64,000 nt of DNA from Deltaproteobacteria bacterium (GTDB lineage Bacteria; CG2-30-53-67): NCBI GenBank assembly GCA_013151235.1, contig JAADIO010000032.1:2166-66165 (forward strand), given 5' to 3'. The translations under genes were made by a program, and so were the position numbers. Below the pieces are notes generated by a model. That model ran no database searches. It was not told the origin of the DNA and saw only the letters and a program-made list of their open reading frames with translations. This document shows positions 11,566-48,780 of this stretch, piece by piece; position 1 is the stretch's first letter, and each line of letters begins with the position of its first letter.

Positions 11566-11615
11566 CGATCTGGACCTCCGTTGAAGCTTTGCTTGTGGTG
11601 TCGGGGGCGGAACCG

Positions 11616-20356: not shown

Positions 20357-21397
20357 TTATGCGATAATGTTCTTCCGTACCATCGGCCCCATAATCTTGC
20401 TCAGTCCGACCGGAAGTCTTTTCCAGACTGCGACCATCCGTGCCATGGCGGGACTGATCCGGTTTCCGGCTTCCGTCATGCCCTGGTTTTTTGCCCAGCA
20501 GTCCCAATAGAGTTGTTTCGGTTCCGCCCCCCACTGTGCCTTGAACCGGTATGTCCCCCCGTTCGGGGTGGATCTGCCGAAGTCGAATTTTCGGAATCCA
20601 TGTTCACAGGCATACTCGAGGGTCTTCCAGTACAGGAGCATGTTCGGGGCGAAACGGTTGTAGCTTCTGAGGGATGAGGCCCACGGGATTTCAAGGCGAC
20701 CGCGAAATCCGATGAGAAAACCCGAGGCGACCGGGACCTCCCGTGCGTATACAACACAGATCACGGCCCGGTTCGGGAAGAGGTCCAGGATATTACGGAA
20801 CAGCTTCTTGCCGTGTACCGGAGAGCCGAGATCCCGCATGTTTACGGCAAAGACATGGTAGAAATCATCCAGCAGTTCCTTGCTTCCGAAGTGTGCTTCG
20901 AACCCCTCCTTCATTGGTTTTTTGATCTGGCTTCTGAGCTTGGATCTGAAGGAAGTCCAGAGTTCATCGGGGGATTCGGGAAGATCGAGGATCATGGAGA
21001 CCTTGCACTGATTCCGGGTGAGGCCGAGTTCATAAGATTCCGCATGGCGTAGCTCCAGCGCCATCCGATGCTTCCCGGCAAGTTCGATCGCCGCATCGAG
21101 CAGTTTTGTCCGGACATCGTTATTCTCTGCAACGATGCCTCCGTAGTTCACGAAGGGCATGGAAACCAGGAAACGACCGAAGATCAGGCTCTTGACGTAC
21201 ACCAAGGGAAGAACCCCGACGATCTGATCTTCTTTTTCGGCACATAGGTAACAGGTTTGATGAGGAAAGGTCCTTTCCATCAGTTTCTTCCAGGAGAAAA
21301 GATGATAGAGCGATGCCGAAGGAGTCTGAAGAACGAAATCGTCCCAGGCTGTTTTTTGCTCCGGGACTAGGTAGGATATTTGAATGCTTTGTTTCAC
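20357..21397 (-). CDS. FemAB-family protein, PEP-CTERM/exosortase-system associated
   Basis: 346 aa. AWDDFVLQTPSASLYHLFSWKKLMERTF...LPLVYVKSLIFGRFLVSMPFVNYGG is typical of the FemAB-like proteins found next to exosortases. Confidence 0.7.
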   Translation of the reverse strand: MKQSIQISYLVPEQKTAWDDFVLQTPSASLYHLFSWKKLMERTFPHQTCYLCAEKEDQIVGVLPLVYVKSLIFGRFLVSMPFVNYGGIVAENNDVRTKLLDAAIELAGKHRMALELRHAESYELGLTRNQCKVSMILDLPESPDELWTSFRSKLRSQIKKPMKEGFEAHFGSKELLDDFYHVFAVNMRDLGSPVHGKKLFRNILDLFPNRAVICVVYAREVPVASGFLIGFRGRLEIPWASSLRSYNRFAPNMLLYWKTLEYACEHGFRKFDFGRSTPNGGTYRFKAQWGAEPKQLYWDCWAKNQGMTEAGNRISPAMARMVAVWKRLPVGLSKIMGPMVRKNIIA

Positions 21398-21401: not shown

Positions 21402-22046
21402 TCAGGAGGAGGTCTTTGTGGACCATTCTAATAGATAAGGATAGAATTTCAGAAGGAAATTTTGCAGGGTCCTCCATTGTTGTTCCGGTCTTTTCTCTAT
21501 CGGCATGGAAATCCGTACAAGCGCACCGTTGGTTCGGTTGTTCTGCAACGCGCGGCGGATCAGGTCAAACCGCTGGAGATACTCGTTTGCAATCACCCGG
21601 TTGTCCGCCTGGTACCAGTAGGCGACCAGCCGTTTGTCGGTGCCGTTTTCGATTATCATCCGGTTGATGTGAATCTTCCGGTCTCCAACCGGAACGGCAA
21701 CGACCTCCCTGCGAACCGGGGTCCAACCGCTGCCGGGATAACAGTGTAGGGGGGAGTGGATCTGTGTGCCGTTCTGCTGGGTTCGGTAGTAGCCGATGTA
21801 GAGCCAGATCGTTTGACCGTCGAGGGTATGGTAGGCCCGGTTCAGAATTGCATCGGCGCCGAGTTTTTTTAGGACGGCCGGTTTTAGGGGGATCTCTTCG
21901 CTCTGCCATTTACCGATCCGGTCCGGGAAGGTTGAAAAATTCCGGACGAGCGGAACCGGGATGGGGTGAGAAAGGGACCGACTGTAGAAAAAGACCCCGA
22001 TCAGCAGGATGAAAATCACCGAGAAATAGAGGTTGGATTTTTTCAT
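21402..22046 (-). CDS. EpsI-family exosortase-associated protein
   Basis: 214 aa. N-terminal TM anchor, then the IHSPLHCYPGSGW motif typical of EpsI. ATGA overlap with the exosortase stop. Confidence 0.8.
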   Translation of the reverse strand: MKKSNLYFSVIFILLIGVFFYSRSLSHPIPVPLVRNFSTFPDRIGKWQSEEIPLKPAVLKKLGADAILNRAYHTLDGQTIWLYIGYYRTQQNGTQIHSPLHCYPGSGWTPVRREVVAVPVGDRKIHINRMIIENGTDKRLVAYWYQADNRVIANEYLQRFDLIRRALQNNRTNGALVRISMPIEKRPEQQWRTLQNFLLKFYPYLLEWSTKTSS

Positions 22047-22963
22047 GATGGTTTCACCTGCTCCGGGTGTGCCGGCCGCCGATGAAACGCCTGCAGGAGT
22101 TCATTCACCCCGAATATGAGAAGCGTAGCGGTCGTATAGACCACGATCCCGGAGGTTTCGTGGAGGAATCCCTGAGCCGTGTCGGGTCCTTTGTAAACGG
22201 CGAGAAGGGCCGTGACGACAAGGCGGAGAATGTTGCTGATCACGGCTATGGGGAAGATAGCGACAACCAGGAGAGCCCGGGGAAGGAAGCGTTGCTGGGC
22301 GATGTAGGTGAAGGCGATCCCGAAGGTGAGAAGTGAGGTCAGGGAGCGCAGTCCGCTGCAGGCATCGGCGACCTCCAGGGTGGTGTTCGGAAGATAAATG
22401 ATGTTTCCTTCATGGTGGACGGTAATGTGAAGAAGGTCAATAGTGAACACCGCCCATTTCGTAGCGAAGAGTTTCATGGGGGATGCGATGGCGTAATAGA
22501 GAATGTACGGCAAGGGGATCATCAGCAGGAGATAGAGGATCGGGAATACAATCGTCTTGCTCCCTTTCTTCCCCCACATGGTCAGGAGGATTCCAAGCAG
22601 AACAATGATGAAAGAAATCCGTGTGGTAAAAAGTTCATTCCCTGCGATGCCGATCAGGTAGGTTGTAAATCCGAACAGAACGACGAACAGCCCCGGGCCG
22701 TAAGGTTCCGGCTGAATTCGTGAGATTTTTTTTCTTTTACGCCAGACGAGAAATGCCGAGATGAGAGGAACAAAGATTCCGTAACCGTAGTTCGGGTCCT
22801 GATTCCAGTCCCGCCAGAGTTCCGGAAATACGGGCGCATATAGAACAAGCAAACCGAAGCCCAGAAGGCTGAGTTGCAACGGAAAGATTTTCCGGGAGGG
22901 CGATATCTTGTCTGTCTGTACGTGCTCTGTGGCCTTCATACAGCTCCGCCCTCTCGGTTCCAT
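22043..22963 (-). CDS. Exosortase (EpsH/Xrt family transpeptidase)
   Basis: Polytopic membrane protein with the catalytic-Cys motif DACSGLRSLTSLL. It is followed by EpsI, and a PEP-CTERM substrate lies in the window. The start could instead be the internal MKATEH. Confidence 0.85.
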   Translation of the reverse strand: MEPRGRSCMKATEHVQTDKISPSRKIFPLQLSLLGFGLLVLYAPVFPELWRDWNQDPNYGYGIFVPLISAFLVWRKRKKISRIQPEPYGPGLFVVLFGFTTYLIGIAGNELFTTRISFIIVLLGILLTMWGKKGSKTIVFPILYLLLMIPLPYILYYAIASPMKLFATKWAVFTIDLLHITVHHEGNIIYLPNTTLEVADACSGLRSLTSLLTFGIAFTYIAQQRFLPRALLVVAIFPIAVISNILRLVVTALLAVYKGPDTAQGFLHETSGIVVYTTATLLIFGVNELLQAFHRRPAHPEQVKPS

Positions 22964-23115: not shown

Positions 23116-24069
23116 TCAGGGTTCTACCAGAACACTTTGATACCAGCGAATTGTTTCGGTCAGCCCCTTTTCCAGATCAAATTGAGGGTGATAAGCGAGA
23201 TACTTCTCGGCGTAGGAGATGTCGGCCAGGGAGTGCCGGATATCTCCTTGTCGTTTCTCCCTGTAGCTGATCTCGGAACGGGAGCCTGTGATCTCGATGA
23301 TCTTCTCCGCCAGTTCCAGGATACTGATCCGCTCGCCGTACGCGATGTTGAAGGACCGGCCGGCTGCTTGATCCTGCACAAATCCGGCGAGGTTGGCCGC
23401 AACCACGTCGTCGATGTAGGTGAAGTCCCTGGTCTGTCCACCGTCCCCTTCAATGGTAATCGGCTCTCCCTTGAGCGCAGCGGTGACAAACTTGGGAATG
23501 ACGGCGGCATAATCCGATTTCGGGTCTTGTTTTCGTCCGTAGACATTGAAATAGCGGAGTCCCACGGTGTCGAGGCCGTAGATGTCGTGGAAGACCTTGA
23601 GATAGAGTTCCTTGGTGACCTTGGAGACGGCGTAAGGGGACTGAGGGTTGTAGGGCATCGTTTCGCGCTTGGGCAGTTCCGGGGTGTCGCCGTAGACGGA
23701 GGAGGAGATGGCCGTGACGACTTTTTTTACCCCGGAGTCGAGAGCGGCCTTCAACATGTTCAGCGTTCCCGTGACATTGATCTCGTTTGTAGCGAGGGGA
23801 TCCTCCACGCTCCGCGCGACGCTGGGGCGCGCCGCCTGATGTGAAACCGCCTCAATGCTGAAGGTTTGCATCACGTCGGTTAGATGGCTCCGGTCGAGAA
23901 TGCTCCCTTCAATGAGGGTGAAATCGGGATGATCGATGATTCCCTCCAGGTTTTCCCTGCGTCCCGTGCTGAAATCGTCGAAGACGACCACCGTATGTCC
24001 CGCCTGGATGGATTGTTCGGCAAGGTTGCTTCCGATAAATCCTGCGCCGCCGGTAATGAGAATTTTCAC
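23116..24069 (-). CDS. NAD-dependent sugar-nucleotide epimerase/dehydratase (UDP-hexose/GlcNAc 4-epimerase-like SDR)
   Basis: ILITGGAGFIGSNL Rossmann motif and a YAVSK catalytic YxxxK. I prefer a GTG start at 24069, preceded by GAGGAG 7 nt upstream. The track ORF extends to the ATG at 24129. Confidence 0.85.
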   Translation of the reverse strand: MKILITGGAGFIGSNLAEQSIQAGHTVVVFDDFSTGRRENLEGIIDHPDFTLIEGSILDRSHLTDVMQTFSIEAVSHQAARPSVARSVEDPLATNEINVTGTLNMLKAALDSGVKKVVTAISSSVYGDTPELPKRETMPYNPQSPYAVSKVTKELYLKVFHDIYGLDTVGLRYFNVYGRKQDPKSDYAAVIPKFVTAALKGEPITIEGDGGQTRDFTYIDDVVAANLAGFVQDQAAGRSFNIAYGERISILELAEKIIEITGSRSEISYREKRQGDIRHSLADISYAEKYLAYHPQFDLEKGLTETIRWYQSVLVEP

Positions 24070-24139
24070 GTCTTGCTCCTCTGAATATGAATGGGGGATA
24101 ACCCTGTCAATTTTACTATTATACTTCATTCGTGTTGTC

Positions 24140-24167
24140 GGGGAAAACCTTTTTTCAGGTTTTCCCC
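24140..24167. repeat. Perfect 10-bp inverted repeat in the divergent control region
   Basis: GGGGAAAACC-ttttttca-GGTTTTCCCC. It lies between the minus-strand EPS operon and the plus-strand pilus-like operon, with no flanking T-run on either strand. Confidence 0.5.
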
Positions 24168-24391
24168 GAATTAATATTCCGCCCGGGTAGGGGTTGTGCT
24201 CAAGTTTCCGGGTTGCTGAGCCGATAAGAGAGATACTCAGTCGAAAAATGATGGAAGTCTATAGGAATCTTCACTGGAAATCTACGAAGTCAAGGGATCC
24301 TGCCCTATGGCTTCCGAACTCTTTCGGTTGTGCGGCAGGTCTAATAATCCCGGCTCATGATGGAGCCCGGGAAAATCAACGGAGGTGTACA

Positions 24392-25006
24392 ATGAAAAGA
24401 TTGGGAAGAACATCAGGTTTTACCCTGATCGAGATTATCGTGGTCATTGCCGTCATCGCGATCCTGGCGGCAATCATGACCCCCTCGATCATCAAAAATA
24501 TCGATGATTCCAGAATCGCACGGGCCAAGAACGATGTCCAGGTCCTGGGAGCGTCCGTTGCCGATTTCTACAAGGATACGGGAAAATGGCCGACCGATAA
24601 TGACCCGAGCGCCGGGAACAGTAACTATCTTTATGTGTTGGAGACTGTCGGCGGGACCACCCCCAGTCACAGTGGAACGGATACCAACGGCTGGACCACA
24701 TGGGGGGCCGCACGACGTGACACCTTTGAGAACCAGTTGGTTCTGAACGATCCGAAGGGAGGCGGCAATGCCTATCCGACGACCGGCGAGTTCCGATGGA
24801 AGGGACCCTATATTAACGAGATCAAGAGCGATCCGTGGGGGAACAAATACTACTGTAACGTAATCGGGCTCTGGTACGGCAGGGGCTACGAAGCCGTCTT
24901 TGTCCTTTCCGCCGGTCCCGACGGGGTCATCAATACCGATGTAAAACAGCTTATTTCTTCCAGTCCGACGCTGGGGGGGGACGATATCGGTTTCCGAATA
25001 AAATGA
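24392..25006 (+). CDS. Prepilin-type (GspG-like) pseudopilin/pilin
   Basis: MKRLGRTSG/FTLIEIIVVIAVIAILAAI is a class III signal with a conserved Glu at +5. IARAKNDVQ...GPYINEIKSDPWGNKYY...SAGPDG resembles GspG. Start set at the MKRL ATG (24392). Confidence 0.8.
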   Translation: MKRLGRTSGFTLIEIIVVIAVIAILAAIMTPSIIKNIDDSRIARAKNDVQVLGASVADFYKDTGKWPTDNDPSAGNSNYLYVLETVGGTTPSHSGTDTNGWTTWGAARRDTFENQLVLNDPKGGGNAYPTTGEFRWKGPYINEIKSDPWGNKYYCNVIGLWYGRGYEAVFVLSAGPDGVINTDVKQLISSSPTLGGDDIGFRIK

Positions 25007-25097
25007 TGTGATCGTTTCATGAGGATAAGCTGTTCCTGCTGACCATTGCACCGGGTCCGATTTTTACCATCGGTCACGGGATGAAAGGTTCCTTCTG

Positions 25098-26768
25098 ATG
25101 CCGGTAAGTACACCTCCGAAAACCCGTCCTTTAGGGGAACGTCTGATTGATGCGGGGCTTTTAACCTCCGAGCAGCTTCGCATCGCGCTGAAGGAACAGA
25201 AACGAACGAAAGAGATGCTGGGCCGGATCCTGGTCCGGCTGGGATTTACCACACAGGAGCAGATCGAGGCGGCCCTGGCGCAGGAGTCGGGGACCGTTCA
25301 GAAAAATCTCGAATTTGTCGAGATTGATCTTGATGCCGTCAAACTGATCAATGAGGAGACGGCCCGGAAATACAAACTGATTCCGGTCTCCCGGGAGGGA
25401 GAGGTGCTGACGGTTGCCATGGTCGACACCTTTGACGTGGTGGCCATTGACGAAGTCCAGAACGAGTCAGGTCTTGATGTGAACGTGATTGCCGCCTCGG
25501 AGAAGGATGTCCTGGAGGCGATCAACAAGTATTGCGGATTTTCCGGGTCCATCGATGAAGTGGTCGATCAGGCCCTTGCCGAGGGGCTGGGGCGTGATCG
25601 GGCCGACCAGGAGGCCCAGGAGGCTCCGATCATCCGCCTGGTCAATCAGTTGATCCTTCGCGGGATTAATGAAGCGGCAACGGATATTCACTTCGAACCG
25701 GACGAAAAGGTCCTGCGGATTCGTTACCGTCTGGACGGGGCCTTGCAGCAGGGGTTTCTCCTGCCCAAGCAGTTGCAGCCTTCGGTCATTGCCCGGATCA
25801 AAATCCTGGCCGACCTGAACATTGCTGAATCGCGCATCCCCCAGGACGGCAAGATCCGTTTTCAAATCGGGAAGAAAGATATCGATCTCCGTGTTTCCAC
25901 CCTTCCGACCATTTACGGGGAGAACGTGGTGATGCGGATTCTCGACAAGTCAAAGGTCCTTCTGGGGCTGGAGGACCTCGGTTTTTCCCCGCAGAATCTC
26001 GAGATTTTCACCGAGATGATTCAGCGCCCTCACGGGATCATTCTCGTCACCGGGCCCACCGGATCGGGCAAGACGACGACGCTCTACACGGCTCTTTCCC
26101 ATATCAACTCTCTGGACAAGAAGATCTGCACCCTGGAGGATCCTGTGGAATATCAGCTCTCGGTGATTCGTCAGACCCAGATTAATGAAGAGATCGGTAT
26201 GACCTTTGCCGCCGGTCTGCGCTCCTTGTTACGACAGGACCCCGATGTGATTCTTGTGGGAGAGATGCGGGATACGGAAACCGCGGAGATGGCCATCCGG
26301 GCGGCCCTGACCGGACACCTGGTCTTTTCCACCCTTCATACCAACGATGCCGCCGGCGCTCTGCCGCGGTTGATCGATATGGGGCTGGACCCTTATCTCC
26401 TGGCCTCTTCCATCATCATGGTCCTGGCCCAGCGGCTGGTCCGAAAGATCTGCCCCGACTGCAAGGAGGCCTATACGGTCCCTGCCGAAGAACTGCGGGC
26501 TCTTGGACTGGCCGAGATGGAAGGGTTTTCCTTCTACAGGGGGGCGGGCTGCGATAAGTGTAATCAGTCCGGCTATCGGGGGCGGGCGGCCATTTATGAA
26601 CTTCTTCCGGTGGATCACACCGTTCATGATCTGATTCTGCAAGGGGCTTCCTCCGTCGAGATTCAGAAATCTGCGATGTCACAGGGGATGACGACCATGC
26701 GGAACGACGGATTCAAAAAAGTAGTGGTCGGTTTGACGACCCTCGACGAAGTGATGCGCCTGACGTAA
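25098..26768 (+). CDS. GspE/PilB/MshE-family secretion ATPase with N-terminal MshEN c-di-GMP-binding domain
   Basis: 556 aa. Walker A GPTGSGKTTT, Asp box, Walker B ILVGEMRD and a tetracysteine motif (CPDC...CDKC). The N-terminal tandem 24-residue MshEN motifs are described in the findings. Confidence 0.9.
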   Translation: MPVSTPPKTRPLGERLIDAGLLTSEQLRIALKEQKRTKEMLGRILVRLGFTTQEQIEAALAQESGTVQKNLEFVEIDLDAVKLINEETARKYKLIPVSREGEVLTVAMVDTFDVVAIDEVQNESGLDVNVIAASEKDVLEAINKYCGFSGSIDEVVDQALAEGLGRDRADQEAQEAPIIRLVNQLILRGINEAATDIHFEPDEKVLRIRYRLDGALQQGFLLPKQLQPSVIARIKILADLNIAESRIPQDGKIRFQIGKKDIDLRVSTLPTIYGENVVMRILDKSKVLLGLEDLGFSPQNLEIFTEMIQRPHGIILVTGPTGSGKTTTLYTALSHINSLDKKICTLEDPVEYQLSVIRQTQINEEIGMTFAAGLRSLLRQDPDVILVGEMRDTETAEMAIRAALTGHLVFSTLHTNDAAGALPRLIDMGLDPYLLASSIIMVLAQRLVRKICPDCKEAYTVPAEELRALGLAEMEGFSFYRGAGCDKCNQSGYRGRAAIYELLPVDHTVHDLILQGASSVEIQKSAMSQGMTTMRNDGFKKVVVGLTTLDEVMRLT

Positions 26769-26784
26769 TTCCCGGGGACAGGCA

Positions 26785-27984
26785 ATGCCCGAATATACCT
26801 ATAAAGCGAGAAATACGGAAGGCAAACTGATCAACGGTGTGATGGCTGCGGTCAACCCGGAGGATCTCTATGCAAAGCTGTCCGGGATCGGCTGTTATCC
26901 CACCGGTTTCGAGATCCGGAAGAATGTCTCCCTCGGGGTGAGGAAAAGGGTCTCACGGCGGGATCTGATTACTTTCACGGTTCATCTCGGAACCATCCTT
27001 GCCTCGGGGATCCCGATCCTCACCGGCCTGAAGGACCTGCTGGAGCAGACCGAGGTCGGGTTTTTCCGTCAGGTCATTGAAGACATCCATCGGAATATCG
27101 AGGCCGGTCTTTCCCTCTCGGCCGCGATGGCGGAGTACCCGCAGGTCTTTTCCGAACTGTATGTGGCCATGGTTTCCGCCGGGGAGAGTACCGGGAAAAT
27201 GGAGGAAACCTTCCAGAGTCTGACCTCCTATCTGGAGTGGCAGGAGGACCTGATGGGGCAGATCAAGCAGGCGACCCTTTATCCCATTGTTGTTTTCTGG
27301 GCCATCGTTGGGCTGGTGGCCCTGATCTTTACCGTGGTCCTGCCGAAATTTCTCGTTATCTTTGAAAAGAGCCATGTGGCGCTCCCCCTTCCGACCCGGA
27401 TCATTATTTCGATCAGTCATTTCATGCTCCACTCCTGGCCGATGCTGCTGTGCGGGATCTTTCTCTTTTTCCTGGCGCTGCGCTTCATCAAAGGGATTCC
27501 CGCCACCCGGATCGCCTATGACCGGCTCAAATTGATGATCCCAGTTTTCGGGGCCTTAAGTCACAAGATTATCCTGGCCCGGTTTGCGCATACCTTCAGT
27601 TCCCTGTACCGTTCCGGCGTCAATATTATTCATGTTCTGGAATTGATGGAGAAAACAACGGGCAACCGGGTTTTTGAAAGAGCGGTCGTGGAGATCCGCC
27701 AGAGGGTTCAGGAAGGACGGGGTGTTGCCGAGACGATGCGGGAGACGGGGCTCTTTCCTCCCCTGTTCGTTCGGATGGTTTCCATCGGGGAAGAGACAGG
27801 AAGCCTTGATTTTACCCTGGAGAAACTGAGCGGTTTTTACGACCGTGAGGTTCCGATGACCGTTAAAAAGGTCTTCGGTATCATGGAACCGTTGATCATT
27901 GTGATTTTGGGGGGAATCGTGGGGACGGTGGCCATGTCGGTTTTTCTGCCCCTCTACAAGATGATGAGTGTGGCCGGAGGTTAA
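26785..27984 (+). CDS. GspF/PilC/MshG-family inner-membrane platform protein
   Basis: 399 aa. Two repeated T2SS_F domains and 3 TM segments, positioned immediately after the ATPase. Confidence 0.9.
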   Translation: MPEYTYKARNTEGKLINGVMAAVNPEDLYAKLSGIGCYPTGFEIRKNVSLGVRKRVSRRDLITFTVHLGTILASGIPILTGLKDLLEQTEVGFFRQVIEDIHRNIEAGLSLSAAMAEYPQVFSELYVAMVSAGESTGKMEETFQSLTSYLEWQEDLMGQIKQATLYPIVVFWAIVGLVALIFTVVLPKFLVIFEKSHVALPLPTRIIISISHFMLHSWPMLLCGIFLFFLALRFIKGIPATRIAYDRLKLMIPVFGALSHKIILARFAHTFSSLYRSGVNIIHVLELMEKTTGNRVFERAVVEIRQRVQEGRGVAETMRETGLFPPLFVRMVSIGEETGSLDFTLEKLSGFYDREVPMTVKKVFGIMEPLIIVILGGIVGTVAMSVFLPLYKMMSVAGG

Positions 27985-27987
27985 ACG

Positions 27988-29577
27988 GTGGTTTTTTTTT
28001 CATCCAGATTGGTTGTCGGCATGGAGATCAGCGGGAACGTCATTCGTCTGGCTCTGCTCCGGCGCTTGCGAAAAAAAGATTCTCTGGAGGGGCTGATTCG
28101 ACTGGAAGCACCGTCCGACAATATCGAGGATGTCCGCCGGACGCTCACCGATGGTGTCCGCCGGAACGGTCTGACGGGAACGCCCGCAGCCATGATTCTC
28201 CAGGACCCCCGCATCCTGCACCGGGCTTTCGCCTTGCCGAAGATGTCGCAGAAAGAGATTGATGCTGTCGTTCCCTTTGAAGCACGAAAGGCCTTCGGGG
28301 TCAGGCGGGACTTCCGGATCGTTTACCATGTACATACCCGTTATCGGGAAGAAGGGGTCCCGAAGATTGAGGTCCTTGCCGCTGCGGTCCCGGGGGAGAT
28401 CGTGCAGAATGCCCTCGATCTGATTCGGGCCGCCGATCTGGTCCCGTACTATCTCATGTCCCTTCCATTTGTACAGTCGCAGCTACCTTCAGCCGCTCTG
28501 ATCTCGGAAACGGAGGAGACGGTGGCTCATCTCCATATCACCCGTATGGGGGTCGATCTGACGGTAACCCGGGGGGGGCATTTTCTCTTTTCCCGCTTGA
28601 TCCGAAAGGAGATCGACTTTTCCCGATTTGATATGACGCCGATGTCGGCGGAACCGGCCTCTTTTGAGAACGACGGCATGGAAATTCTCTCTATTGCCGA
28701 GGAGACGACCGGTGAAAAGGACGATCCTTTCGAACGTCTCTGTACGGAAATCAATCGATCCTTCCTCTATGTCAAACAACAGAACAAGGAGTCCGTAAAG
28801 CGGATTCGGCTGACCGGGGAAGGAAAAAGATTCCCGAACCTGGTGGAGCAGTTGCAACATCACTTAAAACTTCCGCTGACCGTCCTTGAAAATTTGCCGG
28901 GGCTGGATCGGCCGGTCATCTGTACGCCGGCAGCGGGAGAGGAGGGGGAATACGATCTTTGCGTGGCGGTGGCCAAAACCCCCTCGATCTTTTCCACGGC
29001 CAATCTCCTGCCGGAAGAGGAGCAGCTTGAATGGAAAAAGCGATCCGCCCAACGGATTGCAAAGGTTGCCTACATGGTGACGTCGGTCCTGGTCCTGTTT
29101 CTTTATGTGCAGCTTTCCTATCATGTGTATCATGATCAAGTGGAGGCACGGAGATTGCGGCAGGGATATGCCCGGGTGGATCACCGGTTTGAAGGGGTGC
29201 GCCGCACACTTCAGGTTCAATCCGACCGCCTGTTGAGGCGGGCGCTCTGCCGGGGACTCACTTCGGCATCCATTCCTCCGGAGGATGTTCTGGCGGCACT
29301 TGCCCTCTATGCGCCGGATACCGTTGTCCTGAAGCAGTTGGTGGTGCAAGGGGGAAGCCGACCCTTTTTCATGAGGCTGTCGGGAAGGATCGTCCTGCCC
29401 GATTATTCCGGTGGGGAGAAAGAACTGGATCACTTTTTGAATCAATGTAAAAAGACGGGTTTATTCAAGACCGTCCGGGGACGAATCGGTGCCGCTGCGG
29501 ATCAGGGGGAATCGGGACGGGTACAAGTTGCCTCCGTCGGCCGGAGGCGGATCCCGATCGAAATCGAAGGAGAATGA
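27988..29577 (+). CDS. PilM-PilN fusion (MshI-like) assembly protein
   Basis: 529 aa. An N-terminal actin-like region of ~330 aa, a single TM segment (AYMVTSVLVLFLYVQLSY), then a PilN-like periplasmic tail. GTG start. Confidence 0.6.
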   Translation: MVFFSSRLVVGMEISGNVIRLALLRRLRKKDSLEGLIRLEAPSDNIEDVRRTLTDGVRRNGLTGTPAAMILQDPRILHRAFALPKMSQKEIDAVVPFEARKAFGVRRDFRIVYHVHTRYREEGVPKIEVLAAAVPGEIVQNALDLIRAADLVPYYLMSLPFVQSQLPSAALISETEETVAHLHITRMGVDLTVTRGGHFLFSRLIRKEIDFSRFDMTPMSAEPASFENDGMEILSIAEETTGEKDDPFERLCTEINRSFLYVKQQNKESVKRIRLTGEGKRFPNLVEQLQHHLKLPLTVLENLPGLDRPVICTPAAGEEGEYDLCVAVAKTPSIFSTANLLPEEEQLEWKKRSAQRIAKVAYMVTSVLVLFLYVQLSYHVYHDQVEARRLRQGYARVDHRFEGVRRTLQVQSDRLLRRALCRGLTSASIPPEDVLAALALYAPDTVVLKQLVVQGGSRPFFMRLSGRIVLPDYSGGEKELDHFLNQCKKTGLFKTVRGRIGAAADQGESGRVQVASVGRRRIPIEIEGE

Positions 29578-29581
29578 CCCC

Positions 29582-30214
29582 ATGGAACGACTCCCCGGGG
29601 TGAAACGATTTTTGAAGACCCACCAGAACTGGGTGCAGATGACCCTTCCAGGGCTGGTGATTGCGGGGCTGGTCCTGGTTCTGATCGTTCCGAAGGTCAG
29701 GCAGTGGTATGCCCTGCAGCAGGAGATTGGAAAGGTGGGCAGGCAAATGGAACGAGTCTCGATGGATTTGGCTTCTCTCCCGCCGGAGCGGCTTCAGCGC
29801 CTTGCCCGGGCCGATGCGGACGATCGGGAACGGCTGCCCGGCCGGGGTCGGTTCTACACCTACCTGGGGCACCTCCGGGAACTGGGCCGCTCCCTGGGGA
29901 TTGATGAGATCACTTATTTTCGGGGTGCAGTGGAACGGGTCGACATGGATGAGATTCTGGCTCGTTCGACCTTCAATGAGTTGCCCATCTCTCTGGATCC
30001 GGACTCGAATGTCTTGTATGGCATTCCCGTGAAGATCCAGTTTCAGGCCCCCTACCGGACCCTCTATCGGTTTCTGAGGTCGCTCCGGGGAGGAAAACGG
30101 TTGACCGATATCCGGGAAGTGCGGGTCAAAAAAAAATCCGGATCTCTTGCGGTGGAGATGAAGATGGAACTCTATTATCTTGTGAAAAATTCGGGAAGAA
30201 AAGATGCTGCGTAA
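29582..30214 (+). CDS. PilO/MshJ-like assembly protein
   Basis: 210 aa. One N-terminal TM segment, a coiled-coil segment (QWYALQQEIGKVGRQMERV) and a periplasmic domain. Called from position and topology only. AAGGAGAA Shine-Dalgarno upstream of the ATG at 29582. Confidence 0.4.
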   Translation: MERLPGVKRFLKTHQNWVQMTLPGLVIAGLVLVLIVPKVRQWYALQQEIGKVGRQMERVSMDLASLPPERLQRLARADADDRERLPGRGRFYTYLGHLRELGRSLGIDEITYFRGAVERVDMDEILARSTFNELPISLDPDSNVLYGIPVKIQFQAPYRTLYRFLRSLRGGKRLTDIREVRVKKKSGSLAVEMKMELYYLVKNSGRKDAA

Positions 30215-30677
30215 CAAGGTCTTCTTCCTGCTCCTGATCGTGTCGGTGTTCTTCGCCGTTTACCGGAATTATACCTTTTTCCGCAAACGGTTCCATGCCA
30301 TGACACCGTCGGCGATGGCCTCTCTGCCGGTTTCGCCGGATCGGGTGCCGGGGGAGAAGAAAGAAGACAAAGTCGATGGACTCTCCACCGCCGACCGGCT
30401 CCGGTTTGCGGCGGGCGCAGGCCGGGACCCTTTTGTCCTTCCTGGAGGAGAGACTTTCGCTGTGCCGCAAGTGTCGTCGAAAACGAACCGGTTGCCCCGC
30501 CTGAACGCTGTTCTGTGGAGCCGGGGACGTCGGGTTGCCTTGTTGGATGGGGAGATCCATCAGGAAGGGGAGAATATCTCCGGACACAGGATCCTCCGGA
30601 TTGAGCCGGATCGGGTGATCCTGGCCGGTGGGGGAGGCGAGGTGATGATCGAGCTGAAAAAGGGGGAAACCCCCTGA
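30204..30677 (+). CDS. PilP/MshK-like small periplasmic protein
   Basis: 157 aa. N-terminal TM/signal anchor. The C-terminal beta-rich segment (VALLDGEIHQEGENISGHRILRIEPDRVIL) is typical of PilP/GspC HR-type domains that contact secretins. Confidence 0.35.
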   Translation: MLRNKVFFLLLIVSVFFAVYRNYTFFRKRFHAMTPSAMASLPVSPDRVPGEKKEDKVDGLSTADRLRFAAGAGRDPFVLPGGETFAVPQVSSKTNRLPRLNAVLWSRGRRVALLDGEIHQEGENISGHRILRIEPDRVILAGGGGEVMIELKKGETP

Positions 30678-30696
30678 ACACAAAGGAGGAAATCTT

Positions 30697-32283
30697 TTGA
30701 AAAATATCCGTATCATCCTGCCGGGGCTTTTGCTCCTCATCCTCTGGGGATGTGCCGCCGGGAGCAAGACGATCGCAAAGCCGGCGCTTCCGGAACAATA
30801 TACGCCGAAACCTTCCGTGCAGTCGGCCCCTCCGGGGGCCGAGTATCTCCTCCCGCAGATGGCCGGAAAGGAGTCGATCAAGGGAATCGACGGAGAGCGG
30901 TTCTCCATCGCCGTGCAGGATACAAAGCTCAAGGATGTTCTCATGGTTCTGGCCCGGGGCAGCCGTTATAATATGATCGTCGATCCCGCCATCAATGAAT
31001 CCGTTACCATTGACCTGAAAAAGATGACCATGGGAGAGGCCCTGCAGGCGATTCTTTCTCCTCTGCACCTGCAGTACACGATTCGTGGGAACACGATTGA
31101 AGTTCTCCGCCCCCGAATGTCGACCCGCGTCTTCACCCTGAATTATATTACCGCCAGCCGGACCGGTGAAACCGGGTTGATTGTCAGCAGCGGTGGGAGA
31201 GGCGGGGAAAAGAGCTCCGCCGGGGACTACGGTACCGTAAAGTCGACGAACAAGGTGGACCTCTGGGCGGAGATCCGCAAAGGCCTGAACAGCATCCTTT
31301 TCGGTGGCGGCGGAGAGAATGGGAGTGGTCATCAGGAAGAGCGGCTGGTGATCAACGAGCATTCCGGGACCATTCTGGTCACGGCCCTGCCGGCGAAACT
31401 GATGGAGATCGCCGATTTTCTGGAGCGCGTCGAAGGATCGATCCAGCGGCAGGTAATGATCCAGGCCAAGATTATCGAAGTGACCCTTTCCGACGGATTC
31501 AAGGCGGGAATCGACTGGGCGGGGATTCCCAATTTGCGGGGCTCCTTCGTGGGGAACCTTACCTCGGGATTGGCTGCTGCACAACCCCTTCCCGCTTCCG
31601 TGGTACAGCATTTGAGTCCGGGTACCGGCAACTTCCAGATCGGCGCCACCAAGGGGGATATCTCCATTCTCCTCGACATGATCGCCACCCAGGGGAAGGT
31701 TCATGTCCTCTCCAGTCCGAGGATCTCGACCCTGAACAACCAGAAGGCGATTATCAAGGCGGGGCGGGAGGACACCTTCTTCACCGTGAACAAGGAAACA
31801 AATACCGAGGGAGGCGTCCTGCAGGAAAATTTCAATGTCGACCGGGAGGACTACACCATCGGCGTGGTCCTTGATGTGACGCCCCAGATCTCATCCGATG
31901 GGACGATCATCATGAATATTCATCCCAGCATCACCGATTTTGTTGAGGAAAAGACCTTCCCTCCGGGGGCTGTAGGGGTTGACATCTTGGCCAATGCGCC
32001 CGTTCTTGATGTCCGGGAAGTCGACACCATGGTCCGAGTCAAGGACGGCGAGACGATTGTGATTGCCGGTCTGATGCAGGAAAAGACCGAGGAATCGACG
32101 ACGTCCGTTCCGGTCCTGGGGGATATCCCGGTGTTCGGAAAACTGTTCCGGCGGGTGGAGAAGAAAAAGGAAAACACGGAACTGGTGATCCTGTTGCAGC
32201 CGGTTGTTGCCGTCGGCAGAAGCCCGGAAGCTGTCTCCTTTTCCTCTGGTGGGACACCTCCTTTGACTCTGAGGCAACCATGA
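30697..32283 (+). CDS. Secretin (MshL/PilQ/GspD family), lipoprotein-type
   Basis: 528 aa. Lipobox LLILWGC, N-domains, and a C-terminal secretin core (VPVLGDIPVFGKLFR...ELVILLQPVV). TTG start 6 nt after AAGGAGGA. Confidence 0.85.
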   Translation: MKNIRIILPGLLLLILWGCAAGSKTIAKPALPEQYTPKPSVQSAPPGAEYLLPQMAGKESIKGIDGERFSIAVQDTKLKDVLMVLARGSRYNMIVDPAINESVTIDLKKMTMGEALQAILSPLHLQYTIRGNTIEVLRPRMSTRVFTLNYITASRTGETGLIVSSGGRGGEKSSAGDYGTVKSTNKVDLWAEIRKGLNSILFGGGGENGSGHQEERLVINEHSGTILVTALPAKLMEIADFLERVEGSIQRQVMIQAKIIEVTLSDGFKAGIDWAGIPNLRGSFVGNLTSGLAAAQPLPASVVQHLSPGTGNFQIGATKGDISILLDMIATQGKVHVLSSPRISTLNNQKAIIKAGREDTFFTVNKETNTEGGVLQENFNVDREDYTIGVVLDVTPQISSDGTIIMNIHPSITDFVEEKTFPPGAVGVDILANAPVLDVREVDTMVRVKDGETIVIAGLMQEKTEESTTSVPVLGDIPVFGKLFRRVEKKKENTELVILLQPVVAVGRSPEAVSFSSGGTPPLTLRQP

Positions 32284-33248
32284 ATACCGGAGAATCAACG
32301 AGGGAACGGCGGGAAGGAGAAGGAGCCGGGTTGCACCTCTTCATGAACCGGAAAAGAATCCGGGGCTATGGCAGTCTCGCGCTGATGTTTCTCTTTGTCA
32401 TTGTCAGCCTGAAACTTCTCTTTCCGCCTGTGCCGGTAGGGGCTCTCGTGACGACAAACGAGCCCCTCATCCCGACGAAACCGCCGGTACAAAAAGGGGG
32501 AAAAAGGATAGACATCCCTGTGGCGGAACACCCGAAAATCGTCCGGAGAAAGCTGCCCGGGGAGTTCGCTCCTCCGGAAAAGGCGGAAGTCGGGCAGATC
32601 ACCATCTTGTCCCCGAAGCAGGCTGAAGTGAATGAGAAGACCTCCCGTAAGCTGATGGAACTTTCCACCTTTAATGAAGGAGTGGACGCGTTGGCGAGCG
32701 GAAACTACCTGGAGGCGGTGCTGAACTTCAACCGGACCCTCTCCGTTAACCCTCTCAATGTCCGGGCCTGTAACAATCTCGGGCTGGCCTTGATGGAAAC
32801 GGGAAAGGGGAAAGCCGCTGAAGAGGCCTTCCGCAAGGGGCTCGTCATCGACCCCGGGGATGTACGGTGCCTGAACAATCTTGCCCTCCTCTATATCCAA
32901 AGAGGAGAACCTGCCCGATCCCTCCCCTTGCTGGAGCGAATTGTTAAAGACCATCCGGGAGATGCCGTTGCCTGGACCAACCTGGGGGTGGCTGAAGGAA
33001 GAACAGGGAAAGCGGCTGCCGCCGAGACCGCCTACCGCCGGGCACTGAAACTGACCCCCGGGGATTACCGGGTCCATTTCAATCTTGCCCGAACCCTTGA
33101 AAAGGAGGGGCGGCTTATCGAAGCGATCTACTATTATCGGGCCTGTTTGCGGTTCCTTCCTTCGGCGGAAACCGGTCGGGCCCGGAAGGTGATCGCTCAT
33201 CTGAAACAACTCCGGTCATCCCTCACCATTCCCGCCGTCCGGAAGTAA
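32280..33248 (+). CDS. TPR-repeat protein (MshN-like position)
   Basis: 322 aa. N-terminal TM anchor, then several TPR units (AVLNFNRTLSVNPLNVRACNNLG..., AEEAFRKGLVIDPGD..., AETAYRRALKLTPGD...). ATGA overlap with the secretin stop. Confidence 0.75.
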   Translation: MNTGESTRERREGEGAGLHLFMNRKRIRGYGSLALMFLFVIVSLKLLFPPVPVGALVTTNEPLIPTKPPVQKGGKRIDIPVAEHPKIVRRKLPGEFAPPEKAEVGQITILSPKQAEVNEKTSRKLMELSTFNEGVDALASGNYLEAVLNFNRTLSVNPLNVRACNNLGLALMETGKGKAAEEAFRKGLVIDPGDVRCLNNLALLYIQRGEPARSLPLLERIVKDHPGDAVAWTNLGVAEGRTGKAAAAETAYRRALKLTPGDYRVHFNLARTLEKEGRLIEAIYYYRACLRFLPSAETGRARKVIAHLKQLRSSLTIPAVRK

Positions 33249-33468: not shown

Positions 33469-33484
33469 TGGCATCGATTATGCA
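33469..33484 (+). promoter_or_regulatory. Sigma-54 (-24/-12) promoter candidate upstream of the PEP-CTERM gene
   Basis: TGGCATcgattaTGCA, with GG and GC separated by the canonical 10 nt. It lies 73 nt upstream of the ATG at 33557. Confidence 0.6.
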
Positions 33485-33556: not shown

Positions 33557-34150
33557 ATGATCAAGAAAATGTGGAAAATTACGATGGTTGCCTTCCTCGG
33601 GGTTTTATTCTTGGCGCCGGATCTTTTCGCTTTCCCGGTGCTGGGATATGTCGATCCTGGTTTCGGTTCTGGCTATTCCTTGTCGACGACAAAGGTCGGG
33701 ACGGCCACTTACACATTCAAAAATCTTGTCTCCGGATCAAACCTGAATCTTCAGTCGATTTCTCTGGATTTTGAGAAAGATGTTTTTGACATGGACAACA
33801 CCTCTCCTGTGTCGGGAAGCCTTCCTCCGGGCTGGTACTTTGCTCCTCCTATAGACCTTGGAACATATTCTTTTCAGATTACATTTACGCCCGGATTTGG
33901 AATACCGGAAGGCGGAGAGCTTTCATTCCAGATGGATTATACACTATGGGATGATGCCCTTTCCCTGGATTGGGACGAAGGGGGATACTGGGAACAAGGC
34001 TTCGGAGTGAAATATACAGGTGTGCATTTGCTTGTACCCGGCGGTTCAACTGCTCCCGTCCCGGAACCTGCGACCATGCTCTTGTTCGGGATCAGTCTCA
34101 TCACCGTTGCCGGGTATGGAAGGCATCGTATGAACCGTAACAACAGTTAG
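33557..34150 (+). CDS. PEP-CTERM sorting-domain secreted protein (exosortase substrate)
   Basis: Signal peptide MIKKMWKITMVAFLGVLFLAPDLFA. C-terminal VPEPATMLLFGISLITVAGYGRHRMNR gives the PEP motif, a TM helix and a basic tail. Strong TAAGGAGGT Shine-Dalgarno. Confidence 0.85.
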   Translation: MIKKMWKITMVAFLGVLFLAPDLFAFPVLGYVDPGFGSGYSLSTTKVGTATYTFKNLVSGSNLNLQSISLDFEKDVFDMDNTSPVSGSLPPGWYFAPPIDLGTYSFQITFTPGFGIPEGGELSFQMDYTLWDDALSLDWDEGGYWEQGFGVKYTGVHLLVPGGSTAPVPEPATMLLFGISLITVAGYGRHRMNRNNS

Positions 34151-34185
34151 GGTGCGATTTAAAAGAGAATAAGGGGCTTTTCGGG

Positions 34186-34224
34186 AAGGCGTTTACAGTG
34201 ATTGTAAGCGCCTTTTTCTTGTTT
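34186..34224 (+). terminator. Rho-independent terminator after the PEP-CTERM gene
   Basis: AAGGCGTTTACA-gtgat-TGTAAGCGCCTT (12-bp stem with one mismatch), followed by TTTTCTTGTTT. Confidence 0.7.
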
Positions 34225-35118: not shown

Positions 35119-35134
35119 TGGCATCGTATTTGCT
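35119..35134 (+). promoter_or_regulatory. Sigma-54 (-24/-12) promoter
   Basis: TGGCATcgtatTTGCT is a near-consensus match to TGGCAC-N5-TTGCW. It lies 54 nt upstream of the ORF starting at 35188. Confidence 0.7.
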
Positions 35135-35834: not shown

Positions 35835-36542
35835 TTGAGCCCTTTTCCTGCCGTTTTTTCCCAATTGCAGGTCGTTTCCATGGAGTCCTTTACAAATATC
35901 GTCAAAAAGATCGATTCGGTCCTTTCGGTGAATCAGAATATTGAGATCACTTTTGACCATCCCGATTTCATGGTGGAATACAAAAGCCGGGTGGAGAGCA
36001 TTCTGACCGACGGCATTGCCGTGGCTCCACCCACACGCAGGTGTATTGACGTCGGTACCTCCTGCTGGGTCTATTTTTTGACCAAGGGACAACGCTACGG
36101 CTTTTCAAGCCGGGTGAGAGGCTATGGAAAGGAGCGGGTCGTCCTGTTGCTCCTAGCCCGCCCCCAGGAGATCCTGCGCCTTCAGCGGAGAAAATATTTC
36201 CGTGTTCCCGTCGAGATCCCTGTCGATTTCCAGGTACGGGAAGAAACAGAGACGTCTCTCCTGTCCGGTGTGATCCGCAACATCAGTTCCGGTGGTGTTC
36301 TCCTGATAGTCTCCCGGGATGTAGTTCCAGTGGGCAAAGAACTGCGGCTGCGTTTTACCCTGAGTTCCGAGATTTCCCTTACGGAGATTCCGGGAAAAAT
36401 CGTCCGTGTGGAAGAGGCGAAGAACGGAAAGAAATATGAATACGGTGTGGAGTTCATTGATGTCCATAATCGTCTCCGGGATATCATCATGCGTTTTGTT
36501 TTTAACCGCGAAATTGAGTTGAACCGTTTGAGGCGGAGATAA
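35835..36542 (+). CDS. PilZ-domain c-di-GMP receptor (YcgR-like two-domain architecture)
   Basis: 235 aa. QRRKYFRVPV (RxxxR) and RNISSGGVLL ([D/N]xSxxG) motifs in the C-terminal half, with a YcgR-N-like domain before them. The start is ambiguous (TTG at 35835 or ATG at 35880). Confidence 0.8.
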   Translation: MSPFPAVFSQLQVVSMESFTNIVKKIDSVLSVNQNIEITFDHPDFMVEYKSRVESILTDGIAVAPPTRRCIDVGTSCWVYFLTKGQRYGFSSRVRGYGKERVVLLLLARPQEILRLQRRKYFRVPVEIPVDFQVREETETSLLSGVIRNISSGGVLLIVSRDVVPVGKELRLRFTLSSEISLTEIPGKIVRVEEAKNGKKYEYGVEFIDVHNRLRDIIMRFVFNREIELNRLRRR

Positions 36543-44232: not shown

Positions 44233-45574
44233 CGACGAAGAACCCTTTCGTCGCCTGCTGAAAAAAGAACTGACCCGGAAAGGGTTTTCCGTTGAGGTGG
44301 CCCCGGAAGGGGAAACGGCGCTGAAACTTTTGAAGGAGAGTGTCTTTGATCTGCTTCTCCTCGATGTTCTGATGCCGGGACTGGACGGAATTTCCGTGAT
44401 GAAACGGCTGCGTAAGGACCCGACGGCGCCGCCGGTGATCGTCTTGACGGGGAAGGCCACGATTGAAACGGCGGTCGAGGCGATGAAGAACGGCGCCTAT
44501 GACTATCTGACGAAACCCTACAAGCTTGATGAGTTGGAAATCGTCATCAACCGAGCCTGTGAATTCGGGAATTTGAAACACAAAAGCCGGGTACTTGAGC
44601 AGGAGCTGGTTCGAAAAGAATCCAAGGTTGAATTTATCGGGGAAAGCCCGCAGTTCCAGGCGATTTTGACGCTGATTCGCAAGATCGCCCCCACCGACTC
44701 CACGGTTCTTATCCAGGGGGAAAGCGGCACCGGCAAGGAGTTGGTGGCGAATGCCATCTGGCATCACAGCCGTCGGAATAATCTGCCTCTTATCGCCCTG
44801 AACTGTGCCACCCTTTCCGAAACCCTCATGGAATCGGAACTTTTCGGACATGAAAAAGGCGCCTTTACCACGGCTTACCGGACCAAGTACGGTATCGTAG
44901 AGGTTGCCGATAAGGGGACCCTCTTCCTGGATGAGGTGGCCGAGATGCCGATGGGACTCCAGGCCAAGCTCCTCCGCTTTCTTGATCGGGGGGAGTTCCG
45001 TCGTGTGGGCGGAAACAAGACCTTGCAGGTCGATGTCCGGATGATTGCTGCGACCAACAAGAATCTGGAGGAACGGGTTCGGCGGAAAACCTTTCGGGAA
45101 GATCTTTTCTATCGCCTCCATGTGATTAATATCAAGATTCCGCCGCTTCGCGAACGTCCGGAGGATATCCGGGACATTGCCCTTCATTTTGCCAAACAAT
45201 ATTCCCGCAAAATAGGAAAGTCGGTCTGGAAGATTGACGCCGATGCCCTGGGGATTCTCCGGCGTTATGCCTGGCCGGGAAATGTTCGGGAGCTGGAAAA
45301 TGAAATCGAGCGGAGTGTGATCCTCTGTGAAGGCGAGGCGATCGGTGTCCACGACCTTTCGATCGCCGATCGGGTTGCAACGCCCACCTCCGGGACGCAG
45401 CCGATGCTGGAGGAGATCGAGAAGGAGTGTATCCTCAGGGTCCTCCGGGAGACCGGCGGCAACCAGACCCGGGCCAGCAAAATCCTCGGCATCAACCGTA
45501 AAACCCTCTACCTAAAACTTCGCAAATACGGTGCACTTACATCGCAGGATAGCGAGATTCCCCCTGAGGTATAG
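44210..45574 (+). CDS. Sigma-54-dependent response regulator (NtrC family enhancer-binding protein)
   Basis: REC domain (ILVVDDEE...LLLDVLMPGLDG...KP). AAA+ domain with GESGTGKE Walker A and a GAFTTA (GAFTGA-type) loop. C-terminal Fis-type HTH (TRASKILGINRKTLYLKLRKYG). Start set at MARILVVDD, overlapping the kinase stop by 23 nt. Confidence 0.9.
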   Translation: MARILVVDDEEPFRRLLKKELTRKGFSVEVAPEGETALKLLKESVFDLLLLDVLMPGLDGISVMKRLRKDPTAPPVIVLTGKATIETAVEAMKNGAYDYLTKPYKLDELEIVINRACEFGNLKHKSRVLEQELVRKESKVEFIGESPQFQAILTLIRKIAPTDSTVLIQGESGTGKELVANAIWHHSRRNNLPLIALNCATLSETLMESELFGHEKGAFTTAYRTKYGIVEVADKGTLFLDEVAEMPMGLQAKLLRFLDRGEFRRVGGNKTLQVDVRMIAATNKNLEERVRRKTFREDLFYRLHVINIKIPPLRERPEDIRDIALHFAKQYSRKIGKSVWKIDADALGILRRYAWPGNVRELENEIERSVILCEGEAIGVHDLSIADRVATPTSGTQPMLEEIEKECILRVLRETGGNQTRASKILGINRKTLYLKLRKYGALTSQDSEIPPEV

Positions 45575-47698: not shown

Positions 47699-47775
47699 GC
47701 GCTTCAGCCGCGGGAGGGGGGAATCCCCCCTCTTTTGCCCCCCTCCTGCGGATTTTACCCATTTTTAATTTAAGG

Positions 47776-48747: not shown

Positions 48748-48780
48748 TCGATAACCCTAATATCAGAAGGAGAAAACGTT

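Follow-up and report, generated by a model that had tools for sequence, protein, structure and literature searches.

A compact MSHA-like cassette beside an exosortase locus in a deltaproteobacterial contig

Components of the eight-gene cassette

We analyzed a 64,000-nucleotide stretch of contig JAADIO010000032.1 (assembly GCA_013151235.1, Deltaproteobacteria bacterium), referred to below as the window. The subject of the analysis is a cassette at 24392-33248 on the forward strand that resembles the machinery of the mannose-sensitive haemagglutinin (MSHA) pilus and lies next to an exosortase operon. The cassette is a tight operon of eight genes on one strand, with spacings of 91, 16, 3, 4, -11, 19 and -4 bp. 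The gene order is pilin-E-G-I-J-K-L, followed by a tetratricopeptide repeat (TPR) gene at the N position. The genes and the region that separates them from the exosortase operon are listed below, with scores in bits.

24130-24391, no strand: divergent intergenic region of 262 bp, from the epimerase ATG (24129, -) to the pilin ATG (24392)
24392-25006, +: prepilin, starting MKRLGRTSG/FTLIE (class III signal peptide), with a GspG-like C-terminal domain
25098-26768, +: assembly ATPase of the MshE/PilB/GspE type (T2SSE 460.8), with an N-terminal MshEN domain
26785-27984, +: inner-membrane platform protein (MshG/GspF/PilC family), two T2SSF domains (186.6)
27988-29577, +: MshI-like fusion protein of 529 aa (PilM_2 33.3, cut-off 27)
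29582-30214, +: MshJ-like protein (PilO/GspM-like), weak GspM match (E 0.0011) and hhalign links
30204-30677, +: MshK-like protein (PilP/GspC-HR-like), hhalign to gammaproteobacterial MshK 96.9% (E 1.6e-10)
30697-32283, +: MshL-type lipoprotein secretin of 528 aa (Secretin 146.3, STN, Secretin_N_2)
32280-33248, +: TPR protein at the MshN position, multiple TPR Pfam families and an N-terminal membrane anchor

The pilin lies above the Pfam cut-offs for N_methyl (27.3) and T2SSG (37.1, cut-off 21) and scores 66.5 against the GspG equivalog TIGR01710 (cut-off 88.85). Among solved structures, its best match is PulG, a pseudopilus subunit (GspG, PDB 5wda), which is matched in two segments, including the C-terminal DPWG...GPDG region, and its C-terminal domain carries an insertion of ~60 residues. 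The ATPase falls below the equivalog cut-offs of both PilB (623.4, cut-off 675.65) and GspE (610.1, cut-off 630.25). Its MshEN domain is above the Pfam cut-off (58.2, cut-off 23.1), as is the match to the MshE-related cyclic di-GMP (c-di-GMP) motif NF053729 (63.6, cut-off 38). The MshEN glycines G13/G20/G42/G49 are in register with G11/G18/G40/G47 of V. cholerae MshE (PMC5013675), and Q34 is kept. Judged by these motifs, the ATPase is likely gated by c-di-GMP. The platform protein scores 320.6 on GspF and 290.8 on PilC, both below cut-off.

The MshI-like protein is composed of a cytoplasmic PilM-type actin-like domain, a transmembrane/coiled-coil helix, and a periplasmic alpha/beta domain, a layout with PilN/GspL-like topology. 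Profile comparisons with hhalign used as targets the genes at the MshI, MshJ and MshK positions of gammaproteobacterial MSHA loci, and cross-controls were below 1%. The N-terminus matches gammaproteobacterial MshI-1 (95.3%). The match of the C-terminal half to MshI-2 is weak and not significant (E 0.007), so the PilN part of the fusion is assigned solely from its topology. An AlphaFold2 model built from five sequences is of low confidence (predicted local distance difference test score 51.8) and was used only for secondary structure and a cautious fold search; it contains a long helix followed by an alpha/beta domain, and its ten best Foldseek matches in the PDB are all PilM. The MshJ-like gene was set to start at the ATG at 29582 rather than at the GTG of the longest open reading frame (ORF) at 29489; homologues are called at 210-213 aa in two related loci (L001 and L003). 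This protein is tied to MshJ by a transitive link, with 90.8% to deltaproteobacterial J and 95.4% from deltaproteobacterial J to gammaproteobacterial MshJ; the direct comparison gives 42.5% over 171 co-linear columns. The MshK-like protein has weak T2SSB and GspC matches, and phmmer searches with it find the gene immediately upstream of the secretin in ~40 loci. The GspM and GspC matches in the cassette are marginal (E ~1e-3).

The secretin scores best on MshL (TIGR02519), at 246.2 against a cut-off of 250.2, and lower on GspD (185.7, cut-off 351.35) and PilQ (167.5, cut-off 284.35). It contains an N0/STN domain, one N-domain and the secretin domain, and a Gly-Cys lipobox is kept in the family consensus. 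The TPR gene also follows the secretin in related cassettes, and its product is a probable secretin-assembly factor; MshN has been reported as homologous to the Tad pilotin-like TadD (PMC6668835).

As a reference we used the gammaproteobacterial MSHA locus of Neptuniibacter caesariensis (L074), with the order I1-I2-J-K-L-M-N-E-G and downstream pilin-like genes named MshF, B, A, C and D by locus order. Its proteins show the same NCBIfam pattern as those of the window: PilB and GspE score nearly equally and below cut-off, GspF exceeds PilC, MshL is the top secretin family (279.4), and MshK is flagged by a weak YscD-like match. An earlier reading of the window, made from the sequence alone, had described eight co-directional genes encoding an MSHA-like machine, and this description stands. 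The genes lie on one strand with gaps of -11 to +91 bp, at the coordinates that reading gave. The typing with hidden Markov models that it called for gives MshL as the best secretin family and an MshE-type ATPase by MshEN and NF053729, and profile-profile comparison and the I-J-K-L-N order agree with this typing.

The same reading was also right that the window holds no prepilin peptidase, minor pilins, retraction ATPase or MshM. A six-frame regular-expression scan of the 64 kb found a single pilin-like ORF, a single PEP-CTERM-like ORF and no further pilin-like ORF, and no peptidase A24, PilT or MshM is present among the annotated ORFs. The MshA-D proteins of the reference locus have no match in the window. 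A tblastn search with the reference MshM found this protein in two loci (L009 and L014), and in neither the window nor nine tested relatives with the same gene order. The single locus and the missing prepilin peptidase are expected, because MSH loci are characteristically single-locus and lack the peptidase, according to Denise et al. 2019 (PMC6668835).

None of the eight ORFs is disrupted in the window or in two related loci, L004 and L001/L089. The ratio of nonsynonymous to synonymous substitution (dN/dS) between the window and L004, an 80%-identical relative, is 0.05-0.35 in all eight genes, with dS saturated. These values indicate that all eight genes are under purifying selection and that the cassette genes are real and maintained.

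The exosortase locus and the history of the adjacency

The neighbors of the cassette on both sides belong to an exosortase/PEP-CTERM system.

20357-21397, -: PEP-CTERM-system FemAB protein (TIGR03019 339.7, cut-off 260.35)
21402-22046, -: EpsI (149.3, cut-off 42.8)
22043-22963, -: exosortase (8TM_EpsH 189, cut-off 105.55; XrtA-specific model 191, cut-off 208)
23116-24129, -: UDP-sugar epimerase, head of the divergent exosortase operon
33469-33484, +: sigma-54-type -24/-12 element TGGCATCGATTATGCA, 73 nt 5' of the PEP-CTERM gene; an element of this neighbor, not of the cassette
33557-34150, +: PEP-CTERM protein (Pfam PEP-CTERM 24.9, cut-off 20.7; TIGR02595 18.1, cut-off 16)

The cassette is divergent from the exosortase operon, as had been proposed, and its immediate divergent neighbor is the epimerase gene that heads this operon. 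The rest of this exopolysaccharide (EPS) operon, ~20 kb, contains stp2-like glycosyltransferase genes, an AsnB-like amidotransferase gene and an O-antigen-ligase-like gene. Over its whole extent in the window (14-24129, -), no Wza/outer-membrane polysaccharide export (OPX) protein, polysaccharide co-polymerase (PCP)/chain-length determinant, tyrosine kinase, flippase, priming sugar transferase, PrsT or PrsR was recognisable. The operon also encodes a PcRGLX-like protein of 862 aa (5327-7915), a radical SAM/SPASM enzyme, a DUF362 protein, a formyltransferase and a carbamoyltransferase.

To place the cassette, the secretin alignment was scanned against one genome per GTDB species, which gave 80 loci at 31-80% identity, and flanks of up to 10 kb were examined. 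An exosortase, EpsI or epimerase gene lies within 10 kb in one of the 80 loci, the closest relative L004 (JAJRUP01), which is also the only one with a PEP-CTERM tail. The same eight-gene order was found in L005, L006, L020, L024, L027 and L032 and in the metagenome contigs L084-L087. These same-order loci, about ten of them informative, contain no exosortase, EpsI, epimerase or PEP-CTERM tail. Upstream of them are a small ORF, additional pilin-like genes and, in several, an HDOD gene. They carry a second, larger gene of the pilin type (262-428 aa), placed either upstream or between the platform and MshI genes; this gene and the HDOD gene have both been lost in the window lineage. Their GC content is 55-72% (68-72% in the five measured besides L020), compared with 53% for the window. 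The identical order in distant, high-GC loci marks the cassette as an autonomous module that moves across distant lineages. In a neighbor-joining tree of the secretin, the exosortase-linked cassettes all fall into one shallow clade.

The search with the exosortase returned 80 metagenome loci at 37-65% identity, 41 of which were informative (at least 8 kb). A pilin, ATPase or platform gene lies beside the exosortase in none of these 41 (exosortases 37-46% identical). The adjacency is present in four contig lineages with a GC content of 53-54%: the window, L004 (exosortase 76% identical), L175 (74%) and L001/L089 (63%; L001 is GCA_964483105.1). It is absent from the exosortase sisters L088 and L091 (62-63%; L091 is GCA_964463205.1) and L174 (56%; GCA_041608455.1). 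L003 and L175 are short contigs in which only the covered parts of the cassette are visible. We considered whether cassettes of the L086 type and exosortase loci of the L088 type come from one organism and rejected this, as their GC contents are 72% and 48%.

These distributions bear on the proposal of the sequence-only reading that the cassette is a conduit dedicated to the export of the EPS or of PEP-CTERM proteins, a proposal that was staked on a conserved adjacency. The adjacency is not conserved (1 of 80 secretin loci and 0 of 41 exosortase loci), so the case for a dedicated exporter fails on its own terms, and as far as these sequence comparisons reach, the conduit idea gains nothing from comparative genomics.

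The related exosortase loci suggest what the cassette displaced. In L088 and L091, a run of PrsT, PEP-CTERM gene and PrsR is divergent from the epimerase-exosortase-EpsI genes (PrsT: TIGR02917 475, cut-off 312; PrsR: TIGR02915 557, cut-off 502.6). L174 has a PrsR-like regulator divergent from the epimerase, and L004 has a PrsT-like gene convergent with its PEP-CTERM gene. The window has neither PrsR nor PrsT at this junction; the slot between the PEP-CTERM gene and the epimerase that PrsR fills in the sister loci is taken by the cassette, oriented the same way. Since L174, the most divergent of these loci, and L088 and L091 all have the PrsR arrangement, and since the relatives of the cassette are unlinked, insertion of the cassette in the window lineage appears more parsimonious than its loss elsewhere. 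Pairwise identities leave the branching unsettled, however, and would also allow loss from the other lineages as the alternative direction.

The PEP-CTERM gene starts 308 bp past the TPR gene. Its orthologues, at 51-59% identity, are found in L004, L088 and L091 (51-52% in the latter two), and it is absent at the L001/L089 cassette. L004 keeps the sigma-54 element, and the orthologues in L088 and L091 are preceded by a perfect consensus, TGGCACATCATTTGCA. A terminator-like hairpin with a 16-bp stem (34183-34217) follows the gene. Because the orthologue stays with exosortase loci that have no cassette, and because the gene has its own sigma-54 promoter and hairpin, it is an independent unit of the exosortase regulon. 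Thus, of the earlier statement that the cassette is followed by its PEP-CTERM substrate, the position of the gene 3' of the cassette is correct, and the words "its substrate" are not supported for a gene of the exosortase regulon with its own promoter. A second sigma-54 -24/-12 element (35119-35134, +) lies 5' of a DUF5658 gene at 35188, and the nearest sigma-54 activator in the window is an AtoC-like response regulator (44147-45574, +) adjoining a PAS histidine kinase (41680-44232).

The intergenic region shared by the cassette and the exosortase operon measures 262 bp, not the 320 bp given earlier. A block at ~24195-24260 in the pilin leader is conserved in alignment with L004 and partly with L001, and co-regulation of the cassette and the exosortase operon is therefore possible. 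No sigma-54 consensus was found within 2 mismatches in this region, and no Rfam family matches it, including in the pilin leader, where a riboswitch such as the c-di-GMP riboswitch was looked for. An inverted repeat with a 13-bp stem (24138-24169, +) lies directly 5' of the epimerase start and matches no known RNA family. A YcgR-like c-di-GMP receptor with PilZNR and PilZ domains is encoded at 35835-36542 (+), 2.6 kb downstream of the cassette.

Several further observations concern exosortase loci elsewhere. On the metagenome contig Ga0209979_1000528 (L101), a secretin of 438 aa (11019-12335, -) is convergent with an exosortase 270 bp away that is 41% identical to that of the window. This is the only secretin adjoining an exosortase among the 41 informative loci; no pilin, ATPase or platform gene was detected there, four unannotated genes lie upstream of the secretin, and a PorV/FadL-like barrel is encoded nearby. 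The MshM of the reference locus L074 (11366-12268, +) has as its best NCBIfam match TIGR03015, "XrtA/PEP-CTERM system-associated ATPase" (220 bits, below cut-off). This match ties MSHA and type II secretion system (T2SS) accessory ATPases to PEP-CTERM loci at the family level, and the cassette is without that protein. The GspE family in the PEP-CTERM phylogenetic profile of Haft 2006 (34th) was rejected as a sign of linkage, since it is only a low-ranking table entry (PMC1569441).

Further downstream in the window, the stretch 46067-55856 (+) encodes a corrinoid methyltransferase set, with two MtaA/CmuA-type enzymes, an MtrH-like protein, a corrinoid protein and an AcsV/RamA-like activase. This set is directly followed by genes of coenzyme-M-type biosynthesis, here on a bacterial contig: cysteate synthase (above cut-off) and a sulfopyruvate decarboxylase with alpha and beta parts fused. 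A cobalamin riboswitch (RF00174, 104.7 bits; 58815-59001, -) lies 5' of a 179-aa ORF and of genes for a BtuC/BtuD-like ABC transporter (55892-57843, -).

Proposed function and competing explanations

We consider the cassette to encode a compact, self-contained machine of the MSH branch within the type IV filament superfamily, autonomous and probably c-di-GMP-gated, whose genes in one lineage sit where PrsR is found in sister PEP-CTERM loci; we give this reading a probability of roughly 0.55. We infer the filament function, the c-di-GMP gating and the direction of the rearrangement. In the proposed mechanism, the MshE-type ATPase would dock on the platform protein and polymerize the single GspG-like pilin, probably after activation by c-di-GMP through MshEN. 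The MshI-, MshJ- and MshK-like proteins would connect this inner-membrane motor to the lipoprotein secretin, which the TPR protein would help to assemble and through which the filament would exit. A prepilin peptidase, along with minor pilins and a retraction ATPase if the system uses them, would be encoded elsewhere in the genome, as is usual for MSH loci. The output is most probably a surface filament for attachment or aggregation in the biofilm state. By analogy with the MSHA pilus of V. cholerae (PMC7096442), this filament would depend on c-di-GMP and be produced in the lifestyle in which the EPS and PEP-CTERM matrix is made. The adjacency to the exosortase operon would have arisen from a lineage-specific rearrangement in which the cassette landed at the PrsR position.

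Several observations weigh against this reading. The GspG-like, not MshA-like, character of the pilin would suit the pseudopilus of a secretion system no less than a pilus. Both arginines of the MshEN motif are replaced in the ATPase (P11 and M40), so c-di-GMP binding is not certain. The second pilin-like gene of the sister cassettes has been lost in the window lineage. The adjacency is kept across four contig lineages, despite identities down to 42% for MshI and 63% for the exosortase; selection that favors linkage, or co-regulation by way of the shared 262 bp, could explain this. Finally, no Wza/OPX-type outer-membrane exporter is seen in the 24-kb EPS operon of the window.

One alternative is that the cassette exports PEP-CTERM proteins, in the way that the T2SS displays GlyGly-CTERM proteins (with rhombosortase) and MYXO-CTERM proteins (with myxosortase). 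The PulG C-terminal motif of the GspG-like pilin, the adjacency retained in four related lineages, and the PEP-CTERM gene flanking the cassette in both the window and L004 are consistent with it, as are the T2SS precedents for other C-terminally sorted proteins (PMC11980579). In addition, it is stated explicitly in PMC12188702 that the path of PEP-CTERM proteins through the outer membrane is unknown. However, the cassette family has no nearby exosortase or PEP-CTERM genes in every other sampled lineage, the exosortase relatives have no cassette, including the sisters with an orthologous PEP-CTERM gene, and L001/L089 keep the cassette without an adjacent PEP-CTERM gene. The secretin is also of the short MshL type without the N1-N3 vestibule of GspD, and the 64-kb window holds no minor pseudopilins. 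We therefore regard PEP-CTERM export as unlikely. A more specific form of it, in which a compact MSH-type machine with a GspG-like pseudopilin replaced PrsR and became the missing outer-membrane step for exosortase-processed PEP-CTERM proteins, seems to us slightly less likely still.

A general atypical T2SS for exoproteins unrelated to the exosortase, like the Pul/OxpG system of Geobacteraceae that exports a multicopper oxidase, is about as improbable as PEP-CTERM export. Such a system would account for the GspG-like pilin and for an autonomous cassette that crosses distant lineages; MshEN-bearing ATPases serve T2SS and pili alike (PMC5013675), and Desulfuromonadales have atypical Pul systems besides the Msh pilus (PMC3543383). 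Yet the secretin, the I-J-K proteins and the TPR protein match MSHA rather than Gsp components, GspD (185.7) and GspE (610.1) both remain below cut-off, and no candidate cargo gene is conserved beside the cassette.

It is very unlikely that the cassette extrudes the EPS of the neighboring operon as a pilus-like polysaccharide pump, as proposed for the hormogonium polysaccharide (Hps) of cyanobacteria. The lack of a recognised Wza/OPX, PCP or flippase in the 24-kb operon would fit such a pump, and export of Hps by type IV pili has been proposed (discussed in PMC12188702); but that same paper favors a Wzx/Wzy-Wza route, the EPS operon continues past the window edge, where export genes may be located, EPS loci with related exosortases work without the cassette, and the cassette contains no polysaccharide-handling domain. 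It is also highly improbable that the cassette makes nothing and is only what decay has left of a larger MSHA or type IV pilus locus, as the missing MshM, minor pilins, peptidase and retraction ATPase might suggest, given the intact ORFs in the window, L004 and L001/L089, the dN/dS of 0.05-0.35 at saturated dS, and the recurrence of the reduced gene set in distant lineages.

The MSH-branch filament machine is our preferred reading. The way in which PEP-CTERM proteins pass the outer membrane once the exosortase has cleaved them is acknowledged as an open question (PMC12188702), and a secretin machine fixed to an exosortase locus would have offered a direct clue to this route. If the machine that replaced PrsR did act in this way, it would be the PEP-CTERM counterpart of T2SS-dependent GlyGly-CTERM and MYXO-CTERM display. 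Because the exosortase link appears to stem from a local rearrangement confined to a single lineage, this locus should not count as evidence for a PEP-CTERM export route. The analysis defines a recurrent compact MSH-like cassette, with a GspG-like pilin, a fused MshI and no MshM, which moves between distant diderm lineages, most of them uncultured. It also clearly illustrates that, at a PEP-CTERM locus, PrsR can be displaced while the PEP-CTERM gene retains its sigma-54 promoter.

Comparison with known systems

The neighboring operon resembles the XrtA/PEP-CTERM systems described by Haft 2006 (PMC1569441), with its exosortase, EpsI, TIGR03019 FemAB protein and AsnB-like, stp2-like and O-antigen-ligase-like genes, and with a PEP-CTERM protein under a sigma-54 promoter near the operon in the window. 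It differs in that a pilus/secretin cassette is outside the defined PEP-CTERM gene set, and in that TIGR03015, an MshM/GspA-like ATPase and the sole MSHA-related marker of canonical loci, is absent here. The T2SS-dependent display of GlyGly-CTERM proteins in Vibrio and MYXO-CTERM proteins in Myxococcus likewise couples a secretin-based type IV filament machine to a sorting protease in the membrane (PMC11980579). It uses the general, complete T2SS of the cell, however, which is not encoded beside the sortase (PMC11980579), whereas the link in the window consists of adjacency alone and is limited to one lineage.

Among the filament systems, type IVa pili have separate PilM, PilN, PilO and PilP proteins and an AMIN-bearing PilQ, whereas in the cassette PilM is fused, PilB and PilQ are below cut-off, and no PilT is found in the window. 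With the T2SS (Gsp/Pul), the cassette shares a pilin with a GspG N-terminus and the C-terminal DPWG...GPDG region, an ATPase and a platform protein that score nearly as well on the GspE and GspF models, and the GspL-like topology of MshI. Unlike the T2SS, it has neither GspH-K minor pseudopilins nor a recognisable PDZ-bearing GspC, its secretin has N0 and one N-domain rather than the N0-N3 of GspD, and no component reaches a Gsp equivalog cut-off.

The differences from MSHA concern mainly gene order and content. The pilin, ATPase and platform genes precede I-J-K-L-N in the cassette and follow it in MSHA, and MshI is one fused protein rather than two. MshM (a GspA/ExeA-like ATPase), mandatory in the TXSScan MSH model, is missing, and a single GspG-like pilin stands in place of MshA with MshB, C, D, O, P and Q. 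The secretin is 4 bits under the MshL cut-off and belongs to a tree clade separate from that of the gammaproteobacterial loci. In common with MSHA, the cassette forms one locus without a prepilin peptidase, and it contains the MshI-J-K-L-(M)-N block, an MshE-type ATPase with MshEN, and a short lipoprotein secretin whose best family is MshL.

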